Of a stretch of 10,321 nt of DNA, positions 1-10,321 are shown piece after piece; within the stretch, counting starts at the first letter, position 1; each line of letters begins with the position of its first letter. Location: the IMG/VR virus record IMGVR_UViG_2740892234_000013. One strand, written 5' to 3'. A program made the translations under genes and the position numbers. The notes beneath the pieces were generated by a model. That model was given only the letters and a program-made list of their open reading frames with translations. It did no database searches and was not told where the DNA came from. Origin of the DNA: a virus. Its lineage: Duplodnaviria; Heunggongvirae; Uroviricota; Caudoviricetes.

Positions 1-408
1 ACCTCTTTCTCAGGGAGTTTAGTCTCCAGGATTCCCGGGGCGGTTCAGTTTGAAACTGGTGATAATGGCAATGAATATTTTAAATGGCGCATCAGGTCTG
101 GCAGCACAACAAAAGATCTGATGACGCTTAAGTCTGATGCACTACGGGTTACCGGGCAGGTGATACCATCAAATTTCAGCAATTTTGACTCCCGCTATGT
201 CCGGGATCTCCGACTTGGTGGTGCAGCCACATACAAACCTGCGAACAATGGCATGACATGGACACATCAGGCACCGTCCGGGTGTGTATATACCGGCATT
301 ATTGTTCAGGATACCGGCTCAAACTCTGCCGATAACATTGGTGGCGTATATTACAGACCGGTTCAGAAATACATTAACGGGACATGGTACAACGTGGCGC
401 AGGTATAA
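1..408 (+). CDS. Tail fibre protein, C-terminal portion (5' end upstream of window)
   Basis: Frame 1 is open from base 1 with no stop until TAA at 406-408, so the 121..408 ORF in the track is only the tail of a longer gene. It lies immediately upstream of a Tfa gene with a 3-nt gap, the standard fibre/chaperone arrangement; by synteny it is the P2 H equivalent. Confidence 0.7.
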   Translation, partial: TSFSGSLVSRIPGAVQFETGDNGNEYFKWRIRSGSTTKDLMTLKSDALRVTGQVIPSNFSNFDSRYVRDLRLGGAATYKPANNGMTWTHQAPSGCVYTGIIVQDTGSNSADNIGGVYYRPVQKYINGTWYNVAQV

Positions 409-411
409 TTT

Positions 412-939
412 ATGCAGCATTTGATAAATATAACGGCAGGTAATCCAAAAACGGTTGAACAATATCAATTGACAAAGGACTTTGATGTTGTCTGGTTTTT
501 TACAGAAGATGGTAAGAACTGGTACGAAGAACAAAAGTATTTTGCTGATGACACGATAAAAATAGCGTACGACAAAGATAATATTATCCGCTATGTAGAA
601 AAGGATGTGACAGCTATCAGACCGGATGGATTAAGTGTTGTTGAAGTGCCGGATATTACTGCTAATCGACGGGCGGACATTTCAGGGAACTGGATGTTTA
701 AGGACGGTACAGTGATTAAACGAATTTATACGGCAGAGGAATTGCAGCAGCAGGCAGAAAATCGGAAAGCCAGACTTCTTGCAGATGCTGAATCCGTGAT
801 TTTGCCGCTGGAGCGCGCGGTCAGACTGAACATGGCAACAGATGAGGAGCTTAGCCGACTGGAAGCATGGGAACGCTACAGCGTTCTGGTCAGTCGTGTG
901 GATCCTGCAAATCCTGAATGGCCGGAAATGCCGCAATAA
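412..939 (+). CDS. tfa: Tail fibre assembly protein (Tfa family chaperone; P2 G position)
   Basis: 175 aa. The N-terminus ([30 protein letters not shown]...GKNWYEE) and C-terminus ([27 protein letters not shown]) are characteristic of the Tfa family as I recall it. Position directly after the tail-fibre gene. Confidence 0.85.
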
Positions 940-1160: not shown

Positions 1161-1754
1161 ATGTTTACTAAGCGACGATTAAAAAATATTAACTGGGAGG
1201 CAAGTTCAGTGATTCTTGCTATGGTTCTCTTTGTTGGAAATATATTTTATACAAATCATCGTGATGATATAAGCATGGAGGCTGAGAGGGACAGTATCAG
1301 AACAATGTTTGCATATGAAATCACTAATAACCATCGCGCTCTCACTTTTCTTGATAAAACGAGATATATTGGCTTTGACGAAAATTCGGAGCATTTTGTT
1401 GGCGAGCCTTTTGCCATTAATGTCAAATCATTAGGGGGGCCTCGCTTACAGATTGCATTAAACCAGACTGATAAAGTGTTTAAATCCTACTTCAGCGAAT
1501 TAAGTAAGCTTGATAAAGAGGATGTTACTCTTCTTATGGACTATTACCATGAGCAAAGCATCCTGCTGGAGCGTGTAAAATCTACGTTACAGAAGATGAA
1601 AAGTGGTAATGATATTAAAGTTGATATTGATGGTTACTTATTAGAAGAACACTTCATGAATGAGCTTAATCTTTCTAATATTTTGCTTAAACGCTATAGC
1701 CATTTGTTGTCACAATACGCTAAAGAACATAAAACAAAAGATTTACATAATTGA
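1161..1754 (+). CDS. Hypothetical membrane-anchored protein of unknown function; cargo (moron) gene at the Z/fun-equivalent position
   Basis: 197-aa ORF with an AAGG Shine-Dalgarno at 1151-1154, 6 nt before the ATG. The N-terminus has basic residues (KRRLK) followed by one hydrophobic segment (SSVILAMVLFVGNIFY), i.e. a probable signal-anchor or uncleaved signal. The rest is hydrophilic and contains no Cys. The region is AT-rich: I counted 18 G+C in the 60 nt 1201-1260 versus 38 in 2101-2160 inside FI. I recognise no known family. Confidence 0.6.
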   Translation: MFTKRRLKNINWEASSVILAMVLFVGNIFYTNHRDDISMEAERDSIRTMFAYEITNNHRALTFLDKTRYIGFDENSEHFVGEPFAINVKSLGGPRLQIALNQTDKVFKSYFSELSKLDKEDVTLLMDYYHEQSILLERVKSTLQKMKSGNDIKVDIDGYLLEEHFMNELNLSNILLKRYSHLLSQYAKEHKTKDLHN

Positions 1755-1960
1755 TAATCTGCTAATGGTTATTCATGGGGTAACTATGTTTTATATGTAA
1801 TCCAACTCAGATGAATTATTGATTCTGGATAATAACCGCAGAGCGGCATATACCCTGACAGGCAAATGTCCGCTTCTTGTTCAAAGCAGACTGTCAGATT
1901 TGATAACTTTTGGGCTATGTAAATTGTCAGTCGGAAAATGAGTGAGTTCAAATCAGGACA

Positions 1961-1987
1961 GGCGGGCGAATTGCCCGCCTTTTCTTT
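1961..1987 (+). terminator. Rho-independent terminator downstream of the cargo gene
   Basis: Perfect 7-bp GC-rich stem GGCGGGC (1961-1967), loop GAATT, GCCCGCC (1973-1979), followed by TTTTCTTT (1980-1987). Confidence 0.7.
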
Positions 1988-1989
1988 AT

Positions 1990-2060
1990 CTGTTGTTTCA
2001 TCCACTGACCAGCCAGGTCAAATAGCGTCTCATGCTCTGCACAACAGAAAATAGTTGCAC
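1990..2060 (+). promoter_or_regulatory. Candidate late promoter region for the FI-FII-E-T-U-D operon (P2 P_F equivalent, Ogr-dependent)
   Basis: Located between the terminator and the FI start, where P2 has P_F. Contains TGTTGT (1991-1996), a perfect dyad TGACC-AGCCA-GGTCA (2006-2020) and ACAACA (2041-2046). I could not place an exact TGT-N12-ACA Ogr element, so the coordinates are approximate. Confidence 0.3.
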
Positions 2061-2083
2061 CCATTAACCACGGAGTTAAACGG

Positions 2084-3274
2084 ATGAGTGACTATCATCA
2101 CGGCGTGCAGGTGCTGGAGATTAACGACGGCACCCGCGTCATTTCCACCGTATCCACGGCCATTGTCGGCATGGTCTGCACGGCCAGCGATGCGGATGCG
2201 GAAACCTTCCCCCTCAATAAACCGGTGCTGATTACCAACGTGCAGAGCGCAATTGCAAAGGCCGGTAAAAAAGGCACGCTGGCGGCGTCGTTGCTGGCCA
2301 TCACTGACCAGTCAAAACCGGTCACCGTTGTCGTGCGCGTGGAAGACGGCAACGGCGATGACGAAGAAACGAAACTTGCGCAGACCGTTTCCAATATCAT
2401 CGGCACCACCGACGAAAACGGTCAGTACACCGGACTGAAAGCACTGCTGGCGGCGGAGTCGGTAACCGGTGTTAAACCGCGTATTCTCGGTGTGCCGGGA
2501 CTGGACACCAAAGAGGTTGCCGTCGCACTGGCATCAGTCTGTCAGAAGCTGCGCGCTTTCGGGTATATCAGCGCATGGGGCTGTAAGACCATTTCCGAGG
2601 TGAAAGCCTACCGCCAGAATTTCAGCCAGCGTGAGCTGATGGTCATCTGGCCGGATTTCCTCGCATGGGATACGGTCGCCAGTACCACCGCCACCGCGTA
2701 TGCCACCGCCCGTGCGCTGGGTCTGCGCGCTAAAATCGACCAGGAGCAGGGCTGGCATAAAACGCTGTCCAACGTCGGGGTGAACGGTGTTACCGGCATC
2801 AGCGCGTCCGTATTCTGGGATTTGCAGGAGTCCGGCACCGATGCTGACCTGCTTAACGAGTCAGGCGTCACAACGCTGATTCGCCGTGACGGTTTCCGCT
2901 TCTGGGGTAACCGTACCTGCTCTGATGACCCGCTGTTCCTCTTTGAAAACTACACCCGCACCGCGCAGGTGCTGGCCGACACGATGGCTGAGGCGCACAT
3001 GTGGGCGGTGGACAAGCCCATCACCGCAACGCTGATTCGCGACATCGTTGACGGCATCAATGCCAAATTCCGTGAGCTGAAAACAAACGGCTATATCGTG
3101 GATGCGACCTGCTGGTTCAGCGAAGAATCCAACGATGCGGAAACCCTCAAGGCCGGAAAACTGTATATCGACTACGACTATACACCGGTGCCTCCTCTCG
3201 AAAACCTGACCCTGCGCCAGCGTATTACCGATAAATACCTGGCAAATCTGGTCACCTCGGTTAACAGCAATTAA
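2084..3274 (+). CDS. FI: Contractile tail sheath protein (P2 gpFI)
   Basis: 396 aa, the same length as P2 FI. GGAG Shine-Dalgarno at 2072-2075. First gene of the conserved FI-FII-E-T-U-D block. Confidence 0.9.
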   Translation: MSDYHHGVQVLEINDGTRVISTVSTAIVGMVCTASDADAETFPLNKPVLITNVQSAIAKAGKKGTLAASLLAITDQSKPVTVVVRVEDGNGDDEETKLAQTVSNIIGTTDENGQYTGLKALLAAESVTGVKPRILGVPGLDTKEVAVALASVCQKLRAFGYISAWGCKTISEVKAYRQNFSQRELMVIWPDFLAWDTVASTTATAYATARALGLRAKIDQEQGWHKTLSNVGVNGVTGISASVFWDLQESGTDADLLNESGVTTLIRRDGFRFWGNRTCSDDPLFLFENYTRTAQVLADTMAEAHMWAVDKPITATLIRDIVDGINAKFRELKTNGYIVDATCWFSEESNDAETLKAGKLYIDYDYTPVPPLENLTLRQRITDKYLANLVTSVNSN

Positions 3275-3286
3275 GGAGCCTGACCG

Positions 3287-3805
3287 ATGGCAATGCCGCG
3301 CAAACTCAAGTTAATGAACGTCTTTCTGAACGGCTACAGCTATCAGGGCGTTGCAAAGTCCGTCACGCTGCCAAAACTGACCCGTAAACTCGAAAACTAT
3401 CGCGGTGCGGGGATGAACGGAAGCGCACCGGTAGACCTCGGCCTTGATGACGATGCGCTGTCAATGGAGTGGTCGCTCGGTGGTTTCCCGGATTCGGTTA
3501 TCTGGGAGCTTTACGCAGCAACCGGTGTGGATGCCGTGCCGATTCGTTTTGCAGGCTCTTACCAGCGCGACGATACCGGCGAAACGGTGGCCGTCGAGGT
3601 GGTCATGCGTGGACGTCAGAAAGAAATCGACACCGGCGAGGGTAAACAGGGAGAAGACACCGAGTCGAAAATCTCCGTGGTCTGCACCTATTTCCGGCTG
3701 ACGATGGACGGTAAGGAGCTGGTCGAAATCGACACCATCAACATGATTGAGAAGGTGAACGGCGTCGACCGGCTGGAGCAACACCGCCGCAATATCGGCC
3801 TGTAA
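3287..3805 (+). CDS. FII: Tail tube protein (P2 gpFII)
   Basis: 172 aa, the same length as P2 FII. AAGGAG Shine-Dalgarno at 3272-3277. Immediately follows the sheath gene. Confidence 0.9.
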   Translation: MAMPRKLKLMNVFLNGYSYQGVAKSVTLPKLTRKLENYRGAGMNGSAPVDLGLDDDALSMEWSLGGFPDSVIWELYAATGVDAVPIRFAGSYQRDDTGETVAVEVVMRGRQKEIDTGEGKQGEDTESKISVVCTYFRLTMDGKELVEIDTINMIEKVNGVDRLEQHRRNIGL

Positions 3806-3861
3806 TTTTCATCCGGTCAGCCTGGCTGACCGGTTAACCCCGATTCAGAAGTGAGAAAACC

Positions 3862-4137
3862 ATGAACAAAGAAAATGTGATTACCCTGGACAATCCGGTC
3901 AAGCGTGGTGAGCAGGTTATCGAACAGGTCACGCTGATGAAACCCAGTGCGGGGACGCTGCGCGGTGTCAGTCTGGCTGCGGTCGCAAACTCAGAAGTCG
4001 ATGCACTGATTAAGGTGCTGCCGCGCATGACGGCACCGATGCTGACCGAGCAGGAAGTCGCCGCGCTGGAACTGCCTGACCTTGTGGCGCTGGCCGGTAA
4101 GGTGGTCGGTTTTTTGTCGCCGAACTCGGTGCAGTAA
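3862..4137 (+). CDS. E: Tail assembly chaperone gpE (in-frame product)
   Basis: 91 aa, the same length as P2 gpE. Sits between tube and tape-measure genes and ends just after a TTTTTTG slippery heptamer. Confidence 0.9.
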   Translation: MNKENVITLDNPVKRGEQVIEQVTLMKPSAGTLRGVSLAAVANSEVDALIKVLPRMTAPMLTEQEVAALELPDLVALAGKVVGFLSPNSVQ

Positions 4138-4289
4138 CGTTCCCGAAAAATCTGTCGGTCGATGACCTGATGGCGGATGTGGCAGTGATATTTCACTGGC
4201 CGCCATCAGAACTGTATCCCATGAGCCTGACCGAACTCATCACATGGCGCGAAAAGGCGCTCCGGCGAAGCGGAAACACGAATGAGTAA
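3862..4289 (+). CDS. E+E': Tail assembly chaperone gpE+E' made by a -1 programmed frameshift at 4110-4116
   Basis: After the T-run the -1 frame is open to TAA at 4287-4289. My translation of that frame is FVAELGAVTFPKNLSVDDLMADVAVIFHWPPSELYPMSLTELITWREKALRRSGNTNE, which matches the P2 E' extension as I recall it. The stop overlaps the T start codon at 4282. Confidence 0.8.
4110..4116 (+). other. Slippery heptamer TTTTTTG for the E/E' -1 frameshift
   Basis: T(4110) TTTTT(4111-4115) G(4116), 21 nt before the gpE stop. Equivalent to the G/GT and E/E' shift sites of lambda and P2. Confidence 0.75.
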
Positions 4290-6729
4290 CAATGTAAAAT
4301 TACAGGTATTGCTCAGGGCTGTTGACCAGGCATCCCGCCCGTTTAAATCCATCCGCACAGCGAGCAAATCGCTGTCGGGGGATATCCGGGAAACACAAAA
4401 ATCACTGCGCGAGCTGAACGGTCAGGCATCCCGTATTGAGGGATTTCGCAAGACCAGTGCACAGCTCGCCGTGACTGGTCATGCACTTGAAAAGGCACGG
4501 CAGGAGGCCGAAGCCCTTGCCACACAGTTTAAAAACACCGAACGTCCGACACGTGCTCAGGCGAAAGTGCTGGAATCAGCAAAGCGTGCGGCGGAGGACT
4601 TACAGGCGAAATATAACCGCCTGACGGATTCCGTTAAACGCCAGCAGCGGGAACTGGCCGTTGTGGGAATTAATACCCGCAATCTTGCACATGATGAGCA
4701 GGGACTGAAAAACCGTATCAGTGAAACCACCGCACAGCTTAACCGTCAGCGTGACGCGCTGGCGCGTGTCAGTGCGCAACAGGCAAAACTTAACGCAGTA
4801 AAACAGCGTTATCATGCTGGCAAGGAACTGTCCGGAAATATGGCCTCAGTGGGCGCTGCCGGTGTGGGGATTGCGGCGGCGGGAACGATGGCCGGAGTTA
4901 AGCTGCTGATGCCCGGTTATGAGTTTGCGCAGAAAAACTCAGAATTGCAGGCCGTGCTCGGTGTGGCAAAAGATTCCGCCGAAATGGCCGCGCTCCGCAA
5001 ACAGGCGCGCCAGCTCGGCGACAATACCGCCGCCTCAGCGGATGATGCGGCCGGTGCGCAGATTATCATTGCGAAAGCGGGTGGGGATGTTGATGCCATT
5101 CAGGCGGCAACGCCGGTCACGCTGAACATGGCGCTGGCGAACCGCCGCACGATGGAAGAAAACGCCGCCCTGCTGATGGGGATGAAATCCGCCTTTCAGC
5201 TTTCAAACGATAAGGTCGCTCATATCGGGGATGTTCTCTCCGTGACGATGAACAAAACCGCCGCCGATTTTGACGGCATGAGCGATGCGCTGACCTATGC
5301 CGCACCTGTGGCAAAAAATGCCGGTGTCAGCATTGAAGAAACCGCCGCAATGGTCGGGGCGCTGCATGATGCAAAAATTACAGGCTCAATGGCGGGGACG
5401 GGAAGCCGTGCCGTGTTAAGTCGCCTGCAGGCACCAACGGGAAAAGCATGGGATGCACTCAAAGAGCTTGGCGTGAAAACCTCAGACAGCAAGGGAAACA
5501 CCCGGCCAATATTTACCATTCTGAAAGAAATGCAGGCCAGTTTTGAGAAAAACCGGCTCGGTACTGCCCAGCAGGCGGAATACATGAAAACTATTTTCGG
5601 GGAGGAGGCCAGCTCAGCCGCCGCCGTGCTGATGACTGCCGCCTCAACCGGAAAACTGGACAAACTGACCGCTGCGTTTAAAGCCTCAGACGGGAAGACT
5701 GCCGAGCTGGTAAATATCATGCAGGACAACCTCGGCGGTGACTTTAAGGAGTTTCAGTCCGCTTATGAGGCGGTAGGGACAGACCTGTTTGACCAGCAGG
5801 AAGGCGCACTGCGTAAGCTCACACAGACGGCCACAAAGTATGTGTTAAAACTCGACGGCTGGATACAGAAAAACAAATCACTGGCGTCAACCATTGGCAT
5901 CATTGCCGGTGGCGCGCTGGCGCTTACTGGCATCATCGGTGCAATTGGTCTTGTAGCCTGGCCGGTTATCACCGGCATCAATGCCATCATCGCGGCAGCA
6001 GGCGCAATGGGTGCAATCTTCACGACGGTTGGCAGTGCCGTTATGACTGCTATCGGGGCGATTAGCTGGCCGGTTGTGGCAGTGGTGACCGCGATTGTCG
6101 CCGGGGCGTTGCTTATCCGTAAATACTGGGAGCCTGTCAGCGCATTCTTTGGCGGTGTGGTGGAAGGGCTGAAAGCGGCATTTGCGCCGGTGGGAGAACT
6201 GTTCACGCCACTGAAGCCGGTGTTTGACTGGCTGGGGGAAAAGTTACAGGCTGCGTGGCAGTGGTTTAAAAACCTGATTGCACCGGTCAAAGCCACCCGG
6301 GACACCCTGAACCGTTGCCGTGACACGGGCGTCATGTTCGGGCTGGCACTGGCTGACGCGCTGATGCTGCCGCTTAATGCGTTCAACAAATTACGCAGCG
6401 GCATTGACTGGGTACTGGAAAAGCTCGGGGTCATCAACAAAGAGTCAGACACACTTGACCAGACCGCCGCCAGAACTCATGCCGCCACGTATGGCACCGG
6501 TGGTTATATTCCGGCGACCAGCTCTTATGCAGGCTATCAGGCTTATCAGCCGGTCACGGCACCGGCTGGCCGCTCTTATGTGGACCAGAGTAAAAACGAA
6601 TATCACATCAGCCTGACGGGTGGTACTGCACCGGGGACACAGCTTGACCGCCAGTTACAGGATGCGCTCGAAAAATACGAGCGGGATAAACGTGCGCGCG
6701 CCCGTGCCAGCATGATGCATGACGGTTAA
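4282..6729 (+). CDS. T: Tail tape measure protein (P2 gpT)
   Basis: 815 aa, the same length as P2 T. Coiled-coil-like Q/R/A-rich N-terminus and a long Gly/Ala/Ile-rich hydrophobic central segment (GIIAGGALALTGIIGAIGLVAWPVITGINAIIAAAGAMGAIFTTVGSAVMTAIGAISWPVVAVVTAIVAGALL), typical of tape-measure proteins. Confidence 0.9.
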   Translation: MSNNVKLQVLLRAVDQASRPFKSIRTASKSLSGDIRETQKSLRELNGQASRIEGFRKTSAQLAVTGHALEKARQEAEALATQFKNTERPTRAQAKVLESAKRAAEDLQAKYNRLTDSVKRQQRELAVVGINTRNLAHDEQGLKNRISETTAQLNRQRDALARVSAQQAKLNAVKQRYHAGKELSGNMASVGAAGVGIAAAGTMAGVKLLMPGYEFAQKNSELQAVLGVAKDSAEMAALRKQARQLGDNTAASADDAAGAQIIIAKAGGDVDAIQAATPVTLNMALANRRTMEENAALLMGMKSAFQLSNDKVAHIGDVLSVTMNKTAADFDGMSDALTYAAPVAKNAGVSIEETAAMVGALHDAKITGSMAGTGSRAVLSRLQAPTGKAWDALKELGVKTSDSKGNTRPIFTILKEMQASFEKNRLGTAQQAEYMKTIFGEEASSAAAVLMTAASTGKLDKLTAAFKASDGKTAELVNIMQDNLGGDFKEFQSAYEAVGTDLFDQQEGALRKLTQTATKYVLKLDGWIQKNKSLASTIGIIAGGALALTGIIGAIGLVAWPVITGINAIIAAAGAMGAIFTTVGSAVMTAIGAISWPVVAVVTAIVAGALLIRKYWEPVSAFFGGVVEGLKAAFAPVGELFTPLKPVFDWLGEKLQAAWQWFKNLIAPVKATRDTLNRCRDTGVMFGLALADALMLPLNAFNKLRSGIDWVLEKLGVINKESDTLDQTAARTHAATYGTGGYIPATSSYAGYQAYQPVTAPAGRSYVDQSKNEYHISLTGGTAPGTQLDRQLQDALEKYERDKRARARASMMHDG

Positions 6730-6743
6730 GGAGGTGACGAAAA

Positions 6744-7223
6744 ATGATGCTCGCGTTAGGTATGTTTGTTTTTATGCGCCAGACGCTGCCACACCAGACC
6801 ATGCAGCGTGAATCAGATTATCGCTGGCCGTCAAATTCCCGTATCGGTAAACGGGATGCCTACCAGTTTCTCGGCGTTGGTGAGGAAAACATGACGCTTG
6901 CCGGTGTGCTTTATCCCGAACTGACCGGCGGCAAGCTGACGATGACCACGCTCAGGATGATGGCTGAGGAAGGCCGGGCGTGGCCGTTGCTGGATGGCAC
7001 CGGCATGATTTACGGCATGTATGTTATCAGCAGGGTGAGTGAAACAGGGAGTATTTTCTTTGCAGACGGCACACCCCGGAAAATTGATTTTACGCTGTCG
7101 CTCACCCGCGTTGATGAATCACTGGCCGCGCTTTATGGCGATATCGGTAAACAGGCGGAGTCGCTCATCGGTAAGGCTGGCAGTATGGCGACCAGATTCA
7201 CGGGTATGACGGGGGCGGGATAA
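6744..7223 (+). CDS. U: Tail protein gpU (tail terminator/completion)
   Basis: 159 aa, the same length as P2 U. Strong AAGGAGGTGA Shine-Dalgarno at 6727-6736. Its stop overlaps the D start by 1 nt (TAATG). Confidence 0.9.
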   Translation: MMLALGMFVFMRQTLPHQTMQRESDYRWPSNSRIGKRDAYQFLGVGEENMTLAGVLYPELTGGKLTMTTLRMMAEEGRAWPLLDGTGMIYGMYVISRVSETGSIFFADGTPRKIDFTLSLTRVDESLAALYGDIGKQAESLIGKAGSMATRFTGMTGAG

Positions 7224-8386
7224 TGCTGGATGCGCTGACATTTGATGCAGGCAGTACGCTGACGCCGGATTACATGCTGATGCTCGACAGCAGGGATATT
7301 ACCGGCAATATCAGCGACCGTCTGATGAGCATGACTCTGACGGATAACCGGGGCTTTGAGGCTGACCAGCTTGATATTGAACTGAACGATGCCGACGGGC
7401 AGGTCGAACTGCCGGTTCGTGGCGCTGTCCTGACGGTGTATATCGGCTGGAAAGGTTTTGCCCTGGTATGCAAAGGGAAATTCACCGTTGATGAGGTAGA
7501 ACACCGGGGCGCGCCGGATGTGGTCACCATCCGGGCCCGGAGTGCAGATTTTCGTGGCACGCTCAATTCCCGCCGTGAAGGCTCCTGGCATGACACCACG
7601 CTCGGTGCGATTGTTGAGGCGATAGCCTCCCGTAACAGGCTGGAAGCCAGTGTCGCTCCGTCACTGGCCGGAATTAAAATCCCGCACATCGACCAGTCGC
7701 AGGAGTCTGATGCTAAATTCTTGACCCGTCTTGCTGAACGCAACGGCGGTGAGGTGTCGGTAAAAATGGGAAAACTGCTGTTTCTCAAAGCGGGGCAGGG
7801 GGTGACGGCCAGCGGTAAAAAAATCCCGCAGGTCACCATCACCCGCAGCGACGGTGACCGCCATCATTTTGCGATTGCTGACCGTGGAGCCTACACCGGC
7901 GTAACGGCGAAGTGGTTACACACCAAAGACCCGAAGCCGCAAAAGCAGAAGGTAAAACTGAAACGCAAAAAGAAAGAGAAACACCTGCGCGCACTGGAGC
8001 ACCCCAAAGCGAAACCGGTCACGCAGAAGAAAGCGCCAAAAGTACCGGAAGCGCGCGAAGGTGAATACATGGCCGGTGAAGCTGACAACGTTTTTGCCCT
8101 GACTACGGTATATGCCACAAAAGCGCAGGCCATGCGCGCCGCTCAGGCAAAGTGGGATAAGCTGCAACGGGGCGTTGCGGAGTTCTCCATCAGTCTGGCT
8201 ACTGGTCGGGCAGATATTTACACGGAAACGCCGGTCAAAGTGTCAGGCTTTAAGCGCGTCATAGACGAGCAGGACTGGACAATCACTAAGGTGACACATT
8301 TTCTGAATAATAGCGGCTTCACGACGTCCTTAGAGCTTGAGGTCAGGCTTTCTGATGTGGAGTACGAAACAGAAGATGATGAGTGA
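7223..8386 (+). CDS. D: Tail protein gpD (late control gene D, tail hub/baseplate-proximal)
   Basis: 387 aa, the same length as P2 D. Translationally coupled to U. Last gene of the tail operon, before ogr. Confidence 0.9.
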   Translation: MLDALTFDAGSTLTPDYMLMLDSRDITGNISDRLMSMTLTDNRGFEADQLDIELNDADGQVELPVRGAVLTVYIGWKGFALVCKGKFTVDEVEHRGAPDVVTIRARSADFRGTLNSRREGSWHDTTLGAIVEAIASRNRLEASVAPSLAGIKIPHIDQSQESDAKFLTRLAERNGGEVSVKMGKLLFLKAGQGVTASGKKIPQVTITRSDGDRHHFAIADRGAYTGVTAKWLHTKDPKPQKQKVKLKRKKKEKHLRALEHPKAKPVTQKKAPKVPEAREGEYMAGEADNVFALTTVYATKAQAMRAAQAKWDKLQRGVAEFSISLATGRADIYTETPVKVSGFKRVIDEQDWTITKVTHFLNNSGFTTSLELEVRLSDVEYETEDDE

Positions 8387-8404
8387 TGTTTTTATTTTAT
8401 CTGT

Positions 8405-8433
8405 TTGTTTTGTAAGGGTAAATTAACTAAAAT
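8405..8433 (+). promoter_or_regulatory. Candidate sigma70 promoter for ogr
   Basis: TTGTTT (8405-8410), 17-bp spacer, TAAAAT (8428-8433), about 35 nt upstream of the ogr ATG. Confidence 0.35.
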
Positions 8434-8467
8434 GGCACCATCAACAAAACCGGAAGAGGTGCTCGCG

Positions 8468-8686
8468 ATGTTTCATTGTCCTTTATGCCAGCATGCCGCA
8501 CATGCGCGTACAAGCCGCTATATCACTGACACGACAAAAGAGCGTTATCACCAGTGCCAGAACGTGAATTGCAGCGCCACGTTCATCACTTATGAGTCGG
8601 TACAGCGATACATCGTGAAGCCGGGAGAAGTCCACGCCGTGAGGCCGCACCCGTTGCCGTCAGGGCAGCAAATTATGTGGATGTAA
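8468..8686 (+). CDS. ogr: Late-gene transcriptional activator Ogr (C4 zinc-finger)
   Basis: The 72-aa product from the internal ATG at 8468 starts MFHCPLCQHAAHARTSRYITDTTKERYHQCQNVNCSATF, i.e. a CxxC...CxxxxC zinc-binding pattern and the Ogr/Delta family N-terminus. GGAAGAGG lies just upstream. The 93-aa ORF in the track from 8405 is probably an over-extension. Confidence 0.85.
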   Translation: MFHCPLCQHAAHARTSRYITDTTKERYHQCQNVNCSATFITYESVQRYIVKPGEVHAVRPHPLPSGQQIMWM

Positions 8687-8698
8687 TTACAAACAGAA

Positions 8699-8724
8699 AG
8701 CCCCTCAGTCGAGGGGCTTTTTTT
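8699..8724 (+). terminator. Rho-independent terminator after ogr
   Basis: Stem AGCCCCTC (8699-8706), loop AGTC, GAGGGGCT (8711-8718), then a run of 7 T. Confidence 0.8.
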
Positions 8725-8788
8725 GTCGATGTGGTCAATGTGTGGACGTGACCAGAAATAAATCCTTTTATTTCAATTTGTTGTACGT

Positions 8789-8815
8789 AAAAAATAAGCC
8801 CGTGTAAGGGAGATT
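8789..8815. other. attR: P2 att core (attR crossover region), prophage/host boundary
   Basis: AAAAAATAAGCCCGTGTAAGGGAGATT matches the 27-bp P2 attP/attB core as I recall it. It lies after ogr, where P2 attP is located, and coincides with the 3' end of cyaR. Confidence 0.7.
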
Positions 8816-8875
8816 ACACAGGCTAAGGAGGTGGTTCCTGGTACAGCTAGCATTTTATGGGTTATGTTTTTCAGC
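8789..8875 (-). ncRNA. cyaR: CyaR (RyeE) small regulatory RNA, Hfq-dependent and CRP-activated
   Basis: The reverse complement of 8789-8875 reads GCTGAAAAACATAACCCATAAAATGCTAGCTGTACCAGGAACCACCTCCTTAGCCTGTGTAATCTCCCTTACACGGGCTTATTTTTT (87 nt), which matches the CyaR sequence as I recall it, including the CCTCCTT motif. The terminator hairpin is GCCTGTGTAA/TTACACGGGC plus a U-tract. Confidence 0.75.
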
Positions 8876-8930
8876 GAAACGGATGATAACCTTAATAAAT
8901 ACAGCTGTATGTGATCGGTTTCTAAGAATT
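8876..8930 (-). promoter_or_regulatory. cyaR promoter with candidate class II CRP site
   Basis: On the - strand, TATCAT sits at 8888-8883 (about -13 to -8 from a 5' end at 8875). A TGTGA half-site at 8910-8914 places a 22-bp CRP window centred at about -41.5; the second half-site (TTTCT) is weak. Confidence 0.4.
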
Positions 8931-8959
8931 TTCCATCCGGGAAAAATAATCGAAATTAA

Positions 8960-10321
8960 TCACTTACCGTGGGGATTACGCGTGGTTTCCCCGGAGAAAT
9001 TACGCATCAGCAGCGCGTAATTGAGCTCAAGATCCTGCGGGACCGGGAGCCACACAGTATAACCATCGCCTGGTGCTATCGGCATAGCTTCGCCTTTGGC
9101 GTTTTCCATGTGCTCAAGGGTAAAATTAATGTTGCCTTGCGGCGTCATCAGCTCAAGGCTGTCGCCAACGGAGAATTTATTTTTCACCGCTACCGCCGCG
9201 AGGTCCCCCTTGCGCTCACCGGTAAACTCACCAACAAACTGCTGGCGGTCAGAAACTGAATAACCGTATTCGTAGTTCTGATAATCGTCGTGAGTATGAC
9301 GACGCAGGAAACCTTCGGTATAGCCACGATGCGCCAGGCCTTCCAGGGTTTCCAGCAGGCTGGTGTCAAACGGTTTGCCCGCAGCGGCGTCATCAATAGC
9401 TTTGCGGTAAACCTGTGCGGTGCGTGCGCAATAGTAGAAAGATTTGGTACGGCCTTCGATTTTCAGCGAATGCACGCCCATTTTGGTCAGGCGTTCTACA
9501 TGGGCGATAGCGCGCAGATCTTTCGAGTTCATGATGTAAGTGCCGTGCTCATCTTCAAACGCGGTCATATACTCGCCCGGACGCTGGGCTTCTTCGATCA
9601 TAAACACTTTGTCGGTTGGTGCGCCGATACCCAGCGTCGGCTCAACATTTTGCACCGGAATCGGCTCGTACTTGTGTACGATGTTGCCAACATCATCTTC
9701 TTTCCCTTCCTGGACGTTGTACTCCCAGCGGCAGGCGTTGGTGCAGGTGCCCTGGTTCGGGTCGCGCTTGTTGATATAGCCAGAGAGCAGGCAGCGACCG
9801 GAGTAGGCCATGCACAGCGCGCCGTGCACGAAGATCTCTACCTCCATATCCGGCACCTGATTGCGGATCTCTTCAATCTCTTCCAGCGACAGCTCGCGAG
9901 AGAGGATCACGCGGGTCAGTCCCATTTGCTGCCAGAATTTCACCGTCGCCCAGTTCACGGCGTTAGCCTGTACCGAGAGATGGATCGGCATTTCAGGGAA
10001 GTGCTCCCGCACCAGCATAATCAGCCCCGGATCGGACATAATCAGCGCATCCGGCCCCATTTCCACCACCGGTTTCAGGTCACGGATAAAGGTTTTCAGC
10101 TTGGCGTTGTGCGGTGCAATGTTGACCACGACATAAAACTTTTTCCCCAGCGCGTGGGCTTCATTGATGCCGAGCTGAAGATTTTCGTGGTTGAATTCGT
10201 TGTTGCGCACACGCAGGGAATAACGCGGCTGGCCCGCATAAACAGCATCTGCGCCATAAGCGAAAGCGTAACGCATATTTTTCAGCGTTCCCGCCGGGGA
10301 AAGGAGTTCCGGTTTAAACAT
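8960..10321 (-). CDS. trhP: U32-family peptidase-like protein YegQ/TrhP (prephenate-dependent tRNA U34 hydroxylation)
   Basis: Complete 453-aa ORF whose start codon is the last 3 nt of the window on the - strand. The sequence (MFKPELLSPAGTLKNMRYAFAYGADAVYAGQPRYSLR...) matches E. coli YegQ as I recall it, which is also 453 aa. GC-rich host-like composition. Confidence 0.85.
   Translation of the reverse strand: MFKPELLSPAGTLKNMRYAFAYGADAVYAGQPRYSLRVRNNEFNHENLQLGINEAHALGKKFYVVVNIAPHNAKLKTFIRDLKPVVEMGPDALIMSDPGLIMLVREHFPEMPIHLSVQANAVNWATVKFWQQMGLTRVILSRELSLEEIEEIRNQVPDMEVEIFVHGALCMAYSGRCLLSGYINKRDPNQGTCTNACRWEYNVQEGKEDDVGNIVHKYEPIPVQNVEPTLGIGAPTDKVFMIEEAQRPGEYMTAFEDEHGTYIMNSKDLRAIAHVERLTKMGVHSLKIEGRTKSFYYCARTAQVYRKAIDDAAAGKPFDTSLLETLEGLAHRGYTEGFLRRHTHDDYQNYEYGYSVSDRQQFVGEFTGERKGDLAAVAVKNKFSVGDSLELMTPQGNINFTLEHMENAKGEAMPIAPGDGYTVWLPVPQDLELNYALLMRNFSGETTRNPHGK

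Follow-up and report, generated by a model that had tools for sequence, protein, structure and literature searches.

Within the 10,321-nucleotide stretch of DNA analyzed here (the window), positions 7223-10321 very likely comprise the right arm of a P2-type (Peduovirus) prophage together with its attR junction, a prophage that was recently inactivated and lies at the 3′ end of cyaR. The insertion point falls between yegR and yegQ/trhP, and the arrangement is already known: an ordinary P2-type prophage right end in P2's well-known chromosomal attachment site. We describe the prophage as recently inactivated and very probably unable to make infectious particles because its tail-fiber gene, H, is broken and because sister contigs differing by only three SNPs carry an intact H.

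Results

The first-pass annotation had read the region as D, ogr, att, cyaR and yegQ, and Pfam, NCBIfam, Rfam and alignment to P2 (NC_001895) recovered every one of these elements in that order. The essential tail/baseplate-hub gene D (7223-8386, plus strand; Pfam Phage_GPD) encodes a full-length protein of 387 aa that is 98.97% identical to P2 gpD along its whole length. Downstream, ogr (8468-8686, plus strand; Pfam Ogr_Delta) encodes a 72-aa zinc-finger activator of P2 late promoters, with 100% identity to P2 Ogr and an NCBIfam equivalog score of 177.6 bits (cut-off, 116). A Rho-independent terminator that serves ogr and the F operon follows at 8697-8727 (plus strand), a 10-pair hairpin and then a T run; it aligns with, and is identical to, the terminator that P2 annotates at 24265-24288.

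The phage sequence ends in a P2-type attachment site, complete with core, Int arm-type site and IHF site. The 27-bp core, AAAAAATAAGCCCGTGTAAGGGAGATT, lies at 8789-8815, forms the last 27 nt of cyaR, and matches, base for base, the attP core annotated in P2 (24356-24382) and the cores of K-12 and strain OkiPb01681. To its left, alignment with P2 places the P arm of attR, with the Int and IHF sites of P2 attP, at 8726-8788 (plus strand); this region differs from P2, which annotates Int at 24293-24320 and IHF at 24324-24357, by one base. P2 homology runs exactly to the core's end, and in unoccupied E. coli genomes the match to the window starts at 8788/8789.

On the host side, the small RNA gene cyaR occupies 8789-8877 on the minus strand. 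Rfam model RF00112 (CyaR/RyeE) matches 8792-8877 over model positions 1-85 of 85, at 100.7 bits (gathering score, 47). Part of the att core also lies within the cyaR terminator hairpin (8797-8824), and the cyaR annotated in K-12 ends where the core ends. Beyond it, yegQ/trhP (8960-10321, minus strand) encodes a host tRNA U34 hydroxylase of 453 aa (NCBIfam TrhP equivalog, 874.8 bits) that is annotated alike in K-12 and other genomes. By analogy with P2, an integrase of this type would recombine the 27-bp attP core with the identical cyaR-terminator sequence, an exchange that would leave D, ogr, terminator, P arm and core adjoining cyaR and would rebuild cyaR unchanged.

Upstream of D, the gene order FI-FII-E-E′-T-U-D followed by ogr and the attachment site is that of P2, as assigned by Pfam and PHROG and by tblastn matches that are full length at 97.7-100% identity. 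FI encodes the tail sheath (2084-3274, plus strand; 396 aa; Pfam sheath domains; 97.7% identical to P2 FI from end to end) and FII the tail tube (3287-3805, plus strand; 172 aa; Pfam Phage_tube, E-value 2.3e-60; 100% identical to P2). The tail assembly chaperone E (3862-4137, plus strand) is 100% identical to its P2 counterpart. T, the tape measure (4282-6729, plus strand; 815 aa; Pfam PhageMin_Tail), and U, an essential tail protein (6744-7223, plus strand; 159 aa; Pfam Phage_P2_GpU), are 98.3% and 98.1% identical to those of P2. The upstream tail genes are thus full length, as had been proposed. Overlapping stop and start codons, claimed for the same genes, were found at U/D (TAATG, 7221-7225) and E′/T (ATGAGTAA, 4282-4289) but not at FI/FII or T/U, which are 12-14 nt apart. 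The frameshift site described as intact is so: T TTT TTG at 4110-4116, read in the E frame and identical to that of P2 in both site and flanks. The -1 frame is open to 4289, and the predicted E+E′ chaperone (3862-4116 joined to 4116-4289, plus strand) would be a 142-aa product identical to that of P2, whose record itself annotates the E/E′ frameshift.

Overall, P2 17433-24382 aligns to window positions 1869-8815 at 96.4% identity. Homology resumes at 1869 with the F-operon leader and late-promoter region (1869-2083, plus strand), where the window departs from P2 in the stretch that P2 annotates as its PF activator-binding site. Its presence in deposited phage genomes suggests that this promoter variant responds to Ogr.

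The two genomes diverge more strongly further left. G, a tail-fiber assembly protein (412-939, plus strand; 175 aa; Pfam Caudo_TAP, E-value 1.3e-34), is only 74% identical to P2 gpG, and the C-terminus of H is unrelated to the receptor-binding end of P2 H. Where P2 has fun(Z), between G and FI, the window has a cargo gene (1161-1754, plus strand; 197 aa) that coincides with a dip in GC content to ~35%. Its match is phrog_3829 (9.3e-137), a PHROG labeled function unknown, and searches of Pfam, NCBIfam, PADLOC and the PDB gave no match.

The phage part of the window aligns as one unbroken match, with the same cargo gene, at 97.0-97.6% identity to OkiPb01681, P22H1, P24E6b, D8, 12W and PhiR44_1. 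These comprise complete P2-like prophages at this site and deposited Peduovirus phage genome records such as D8, 12W and PhiR44_1, which match the whole region without a break at ~97%. OkiPb01681, the closest complete genome (97.6%), holds a whole prophage, int-C-cox-B-A...Q-P-O-N...D-ogr, between yegR and cyaR. All of these prophages and phage records have an uninterrupted 736-aa H, whereas the lineage of the window carries an insertion sequence (IS) and a frameshift in this gene, lesions that also set it apart from P2.

We next consider these lesions. Comparison of contig L004, which lacks the IS, with L005, which carries it, defined an element of 1310 bp inserted in H, whose last 47 nt form window positions 1-47 (minus strand; an IS3-family end with inverted repeat and leader upstream of orfA). 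In the two draft contigs that match the window at 100% identity, L005 and L008 (LM997072.1 and LM995608.1), the IS interrupts H and its transposase ORFs lie immediately to the left. A GTT target-site duplication occupies 48-50: L005 reads TGTGGTT, then the IS, then GTTTGAAACTGG, while the intact L004 reads TGTGGTTTGAAACTGG. The element is presumably IS629, judging by its ends (TGAACCGCCCCGG...); RefSeq names it only "IS3 family transposase". Like IS629/IS1203 of the IS3 family, it has two overlapping transposase ORFs (HTH_Tnp_1 and rve), imperfect terminal inverted repeats starting TGAACCGCCCCGG, a 3-bp duplication and a prophage location. STEC genomes carry multicopy elements, labeled "IS3 family transposase", to which it is 99.8-99.9% identical. 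IS629 makes target duplications of 3-4 bp and is preferentially located in prophages (PMC3271280).

The IS severs the C-terminal ~120 codons of H (48-408, plus strand; PHROG tail-fiber families, best E-value 3.7e-43), a stretch that is continuous with the 736-aa H of L004 and has no in-frame stop before 406-408. In the source contig, the one of the two identical contigs that extends upstream, H also carries a 1-base deletion (A5 to A4) upstream of the IS, which yields a truncated product of 582 aa. Both lesions recur in L006, which is an independent assembly. Sister contigs L004 and L007, in contrast, have an intact 736-aa H and differ by 3 SNPs in 10,274 nt (99.97% identity). Precise excision is possible for IS elements, yet the frameshift in H would persist.

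These lesions bear directly on the first-pass view of a functional or recently functional prophage. Full function, meaning that the prophage excises, replicates and releases infectious P2-like virions, would be in keeping with tail, lysis and baseplate genes that, as far as they are seen, are all P2-like and full length except H, with a P2-type attR whose core is identical and whose arm is one base off, and with near-identical sister prophages that have H intact. Yet a gene split by a 1310-bp IS with its 3-bp duplication, and frameshifted by a further deletion, in two independent assemblies makes this reading very improbable: the P2 record lists H as a probable tail-fiber protein, and P2 adsorption requires its tail fiber. 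"Recently functional" is the part of the claim that finds support, in the visible genes (full length except H), the excess of synonymous substitutions and the intact H of the sister contigs.

How much of the element survives can be judged over the ~20 kb of phage sequence in the source contig, where M, L, X, Y, K, lysA, lysB, lysC, R, S, V, W, J and I are full length relative to P2. From M to I and from G to ogr every visible phage gene is full length, and only H is broken. With 23 full-length genes and one broken, this sequence is neither absent nor heavily pseudogenised, the outcome that would have spoken against the first-pass interpretation. Substitutions relative to the 97.6%-identical complete prophage are synonymous by a wide margin (29 synonymous to 3 nonsynonymous in D; 72 to 12 in T), a pattern that, at the level of sequence, indicates purifying selection.

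The ogrK/D-fragment remnant of K-12 provides the obvious comparison. As the first-pass annotation stated, the gene order in MG1655 is trhP-cyaR-ogrK-yegZ; yegZ is annotated there as a pseudogene, and a 629-bp feature is named "cryptic prophage PR-X". PR-X shares with the window its site, its orientation relative to cyaR/trhP and its attR core, and the common stretch is 98.1% identical. However, only about 630 bp are kept (window ~8180-8815), including the last ~70 codons of D as yegZ; K-12 aligns to the window only at 8180-10321, and, alongside yegR, the interior of D is joined to the attL core. The window, with its full-length D of 387 aa and tail operon upstream, is not a remnant of the PR-X type. 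K-12 ogrK/yegZ derives from an insertion of this kind, also at this site, that has undergone far more deletion.

A milder version of such decay, an old and largely degraded cryptic element, less deleted than that of K-12 but with its left part absent or pseudogenised, is unlikely. It draws on the extent of the intactness estimate, which covers ~20 kb, so that further lesions or a large deletion may lie in the ~14 kb to the left (N for the most part, O, P, Q, cos, the second cargo locus, A, B, cox, C, int and attL), and on the fact that IS-rich genomes often hold decayed prophages (PMC3271280, PMC2669165). Against it stand the contiguity of those ~20 kb with a single broken gene, the 99.97%-identical sister lineage with an intact H, the complete prophage at the same site in the closest complete genome, and the substitution patterns of purifying selection. 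Recent inactivation of an otherwise largely intact prophage remains our preferred reading.

A contractile-tail operon beside a lysis cassette could also be a domesticated tail module, a P2-like-derived R-type tailocin kept by the host for bacteriocin production, and R-type pyocins are indeed related to P2 tails. A tailocin would lack head and packaging genes and keep those for tail and lysis, whereas the same contig holds the end of the capsid gene N, the terminase small subunit M and the head completion protein L. The element also retains Ogr and an attR bearing P2 arm sites, and the broken gene is the fiber gene, the very specificity determinant that a tailocin needs. We regard this origin as the most improbable of all those considered.

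Finally, we asked how common the arrangement is. Full-length D adjoins cyaR-trhP in 727 of 5426 complete E. coli genomes (about 13%), and the K-12-type remnant is present in 358 of the 5426 (about 7%). In the remaining genomes, among the rows sampled, the match begins exactly at the att core, as expected for an unoccupied site.

Discussion

The window thus captures the right end of a P2-type prophage that, with an interrupted and frameshifted H, was very likely inactivated only recently. During a lytic cycle, Ogr would turn on the late promoters, and the F operon would then give sheath FI, tube FII, chaperones E and E+E′, tape measure T, U and D. As to expression, excision competence and phenotype, we infer that the prophage would probably still express tails and perhaps excise, but would not by itself make adsorbing, infectious virions. 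Because P2-type repressors have no SOS-cleavable peptidase motif, mitomycin C does not induce P2 (PMC2669165), and it is poorly suited to inducing the prophage described here.

We consider it unlikely that the prophage, rather than simply decaying without a working fiber, persists in its host clone as a fixed vehicle for the 197-aa low-GC cargo gene at the fun(Z) hotspot, a candidate uncharacterized anti-phage gene, or that it still excises and is packaged or transferred by means of fibers from another P2-like prophage. For the locus itself, the finding matters little beyond annotation: it is an ordinary, polymorphic P2 attachment site. In the source strain, the carrier of the cargo is probably immobile, so that selection on the cargo would act through the host and not through spread of the phage.

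A P2-type prophage end at cyaR

The plus strand of the window carries the end of the tail-fibre gene H, then G, a low-GC cargo ORF, FI, FII, E, T, U, D and ogr, and the minus strand carries cyaR and yegQ/trhP. D (7223–8386, plus strand) encodes 387 aa with 99.0% identity to phage P2 gpD, and the product of ogr (8468–8686, plus strand) is 100% identical to P2 Ogr. Comparison with P2 attP located a terminator, an Int arm-type site and an IHF site downstream of ogr, the differences being a single substitution in the IHF/arm stretch and an additional T within the T run of the ogr terminator. The 27-bp att core (AAAAAATAAGCCCGTGTAAGGGAGATT, 8789–8815) is identical to the annotated P2 attP core, and its end is the exact limit of P2 homology, beyond which lies host DNA in a layout identical to that of K-12. 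The order D-ogr-att-cyaR-yegQ named in the first-pass annotation is therefore present, with D at full length. The core also forms the last 27 nt of cyaR, whose terminator hairpin (8797–8824) overlaps it; because of this double role, integration rebuilds an unchanged cyaR. A P2-type prophage occupies the P2 attachment site at cyaR, and the region is its right arm with attR.

Just past the window end, trhP and yegP are separated by a ParE/RelE–ParD toxin-antitoxin pair (20013–20528 in L004, a sister contig of the window, and 29877–30471 in L001). The trhP–yegP interval of K-12 MG1655 is without this pair.

Tail operon and cargo ORF

FI, FII, E, T and U are full length, with 97.7–100% identity to their P2 counterparts. 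The slippery heptamer T TTT TTG (4110–4116) lies in the E frame, and the −1 frame continues open as far as 4289 and overlaps the start of T; the predicted E+E' product of 142 aa is identical to that of P2, bearing out the earlier description of full-length tail genes with an intact frameshift site. U and D share one base. Synonymous differences from the closest complete genome, strain OkiPb01681 (97.6% identity), outnumber nonsynonymous ones 29 to 3 in D, 72 to 12 in T and 23 to 5 in FI, and the same right arm matches deposited P2-like phage genome records without a break at ~97% identity. Judged from sequence, the tail operon and Ogr are intact. At window 1990–2030, where P2 has its annotated PF activator (Ogr) binding site, the sequence is substantially unlike that of P2 between conserved flanks, a variant common to deposited P2-like phage genomes.

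The cargo ORF (1161–1754, plus strand, 197 aa) has ~35% GC, against ~55% around it, and encodes a hydrophobic N-terminal stretch. Its only match is phrog_3829 (function unknown); searches of the protein against Pfam, NCBIfam, PADLOC and PDB gave no match. A prophage with 97.6% identity elsewhere carries a copy of the ORF at 99.5% identity. The place it occupies between G and FI, the fun(Z) position of P2, has been described as a defence hotspot (PMC13586616).

The K-12 remnant

The MG1655 annotation reads trhP-cyaR-ogrK-yegZ(pseudogene), a 629-bp 'cryptic prophage PR-X', and MG1655 aligns to the window only over 8180–10321 (98.1% identity). Both the annotation and the extent of the alignment confirm the K-12 arrangement yegQ-cyaR-ogrK-yegZ as given in the first-pass annotation. 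K-12 has the interior of D running straight into the attL core beside yegR; hence, the remnant is what a large internal deletion left of a prophage at the same site. At the remnant's left junction (7804–7830 of the MG1655 locus, ~window 8176–8180), D interior is followed by the final 18 nt of the attL core (TACACGGGCTTATTTTTT) and then yegR-side DNA. This layout suggests that the deletion end lay inside the att core, and the deletion possibly arose by microhomology recombination or an aberrant Int-mediated event. Barreiro and Haggard-Ljungquist reportedly described the P2 remnant of K-12 and the locI site in 1992; the original description was not found in the literature searched.

A broken tail-fibre gene

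In LM997072.1 and LM995608.1, draft contigs both 100% identical to the window, a 1310-bp IS3-family element abuts window base 1 on the left. With boundaries read from comparison with an IS-free sister contig, the IS end occupies window 1–47, a GTT target duplication 48–50, and the detached C-terminal ~120 codons of H 48–408. LM997072.1, from assembly GCA_000939195.1, extends upstream into H, where a 1-base deletion in an A run (A5 to A4) cuts the N-terminal part to 582 aa. An independent assembly has the same H deletion and the same IS, whereas sister contigs, 3 SNPs from the window in 10,274 nt, have an intact H of 736 aa. The fibre gene of the same prophage thus reads as broken twice, by an IS and by a frameshift. 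The IS is 99.8–99.9% identical to multicopy elements of STEC genomes, and its length, ends and 3-bp duplication all fit IS629, a name given here provisionally from the termini. IS629 favours prophages as insertion sites (PMC3271280). Upstream of the window, H also holds ~356-nt direct repeats, offset by 131 nt and ~85% identical (6990–7476 of L005, a stretch of the source contig), in intact and broken lineages alike.

The remaining phage genes visible on the source contig (M, L, X, Y, K, lysA, lysB, lysC, R, S, V, W, J and I) align to P2 at full length. In the closest complete genome, a whole prophage, int to ogr, lies between yegR and cyaR, and this genome is a picture of the intact form. The first-pass annotation had proposed a functional or recently functional prophage. 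Recent function is supported by the full length of every visible gene but H and by the intact H of the sisters; present function, given the double break, is not. The presence of head genes speaks against a tailocin, and that reading was rejected. From the part seen, the N end rightward, the prophage very probably lost its function recently and would now be unable to make infectious virions. P2-type repressors are without an SOS-cleavable motif, and mitomycin C does not induce P2 (PMC2669165), making this drug a poor probe of prophage function.

Related contigs and frequency in E. coli

Cluster representatives found by homology to portal Q and terminase M were 98–99% identical, none fully so, and IMG/VR scans with Q and G gave no contig of the window's lineage. 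The P2-like contig IMGVR_UViG_2609460060_000004 is 99.9% identical to this lineage over N–M (1.7 kb, 14141–15874), while its identity to P2 is only 53% in Int, 51% in C and 35% in Cox. It is a clear example of module swapping between structural and immunity/integration regions; as such a mosaic relative, it was rejected as a proxy for the source prophage's left arm. A 'partial' portal cluster (P0039, 279 aa, 1388 member sequences), whose contigs L010–L013 share one end point within Q, was likewise rejected as a lead, being contig-end truncations of a different lineage, 97% identical. The shared end suggests that a repeat, perhaps an IS, occupies that Q position in another widespread P2-like prophage lineage.

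Full-length D beside cyaR–trhP, scored as ≥80% of window 7223–10321 in one place, occurs in 727 of 5426 complete E. coli genomes; the whole window is covered to ≥80% at a single place in 778/5426, and the K-12-type remnant occurs in 358/5426. Among the remaining genomes, rows drawn at even spacing through the ranking start to match at window 8788/8789, the core's first base, as would an unoccupied site. P2-like prophages are reported in more than one-third of E. coli genomes (PMC13586616). The prophage end is a feature of an already known kind, and the arrangement is common in E. coli genomes and therefore a routine polymorphism.
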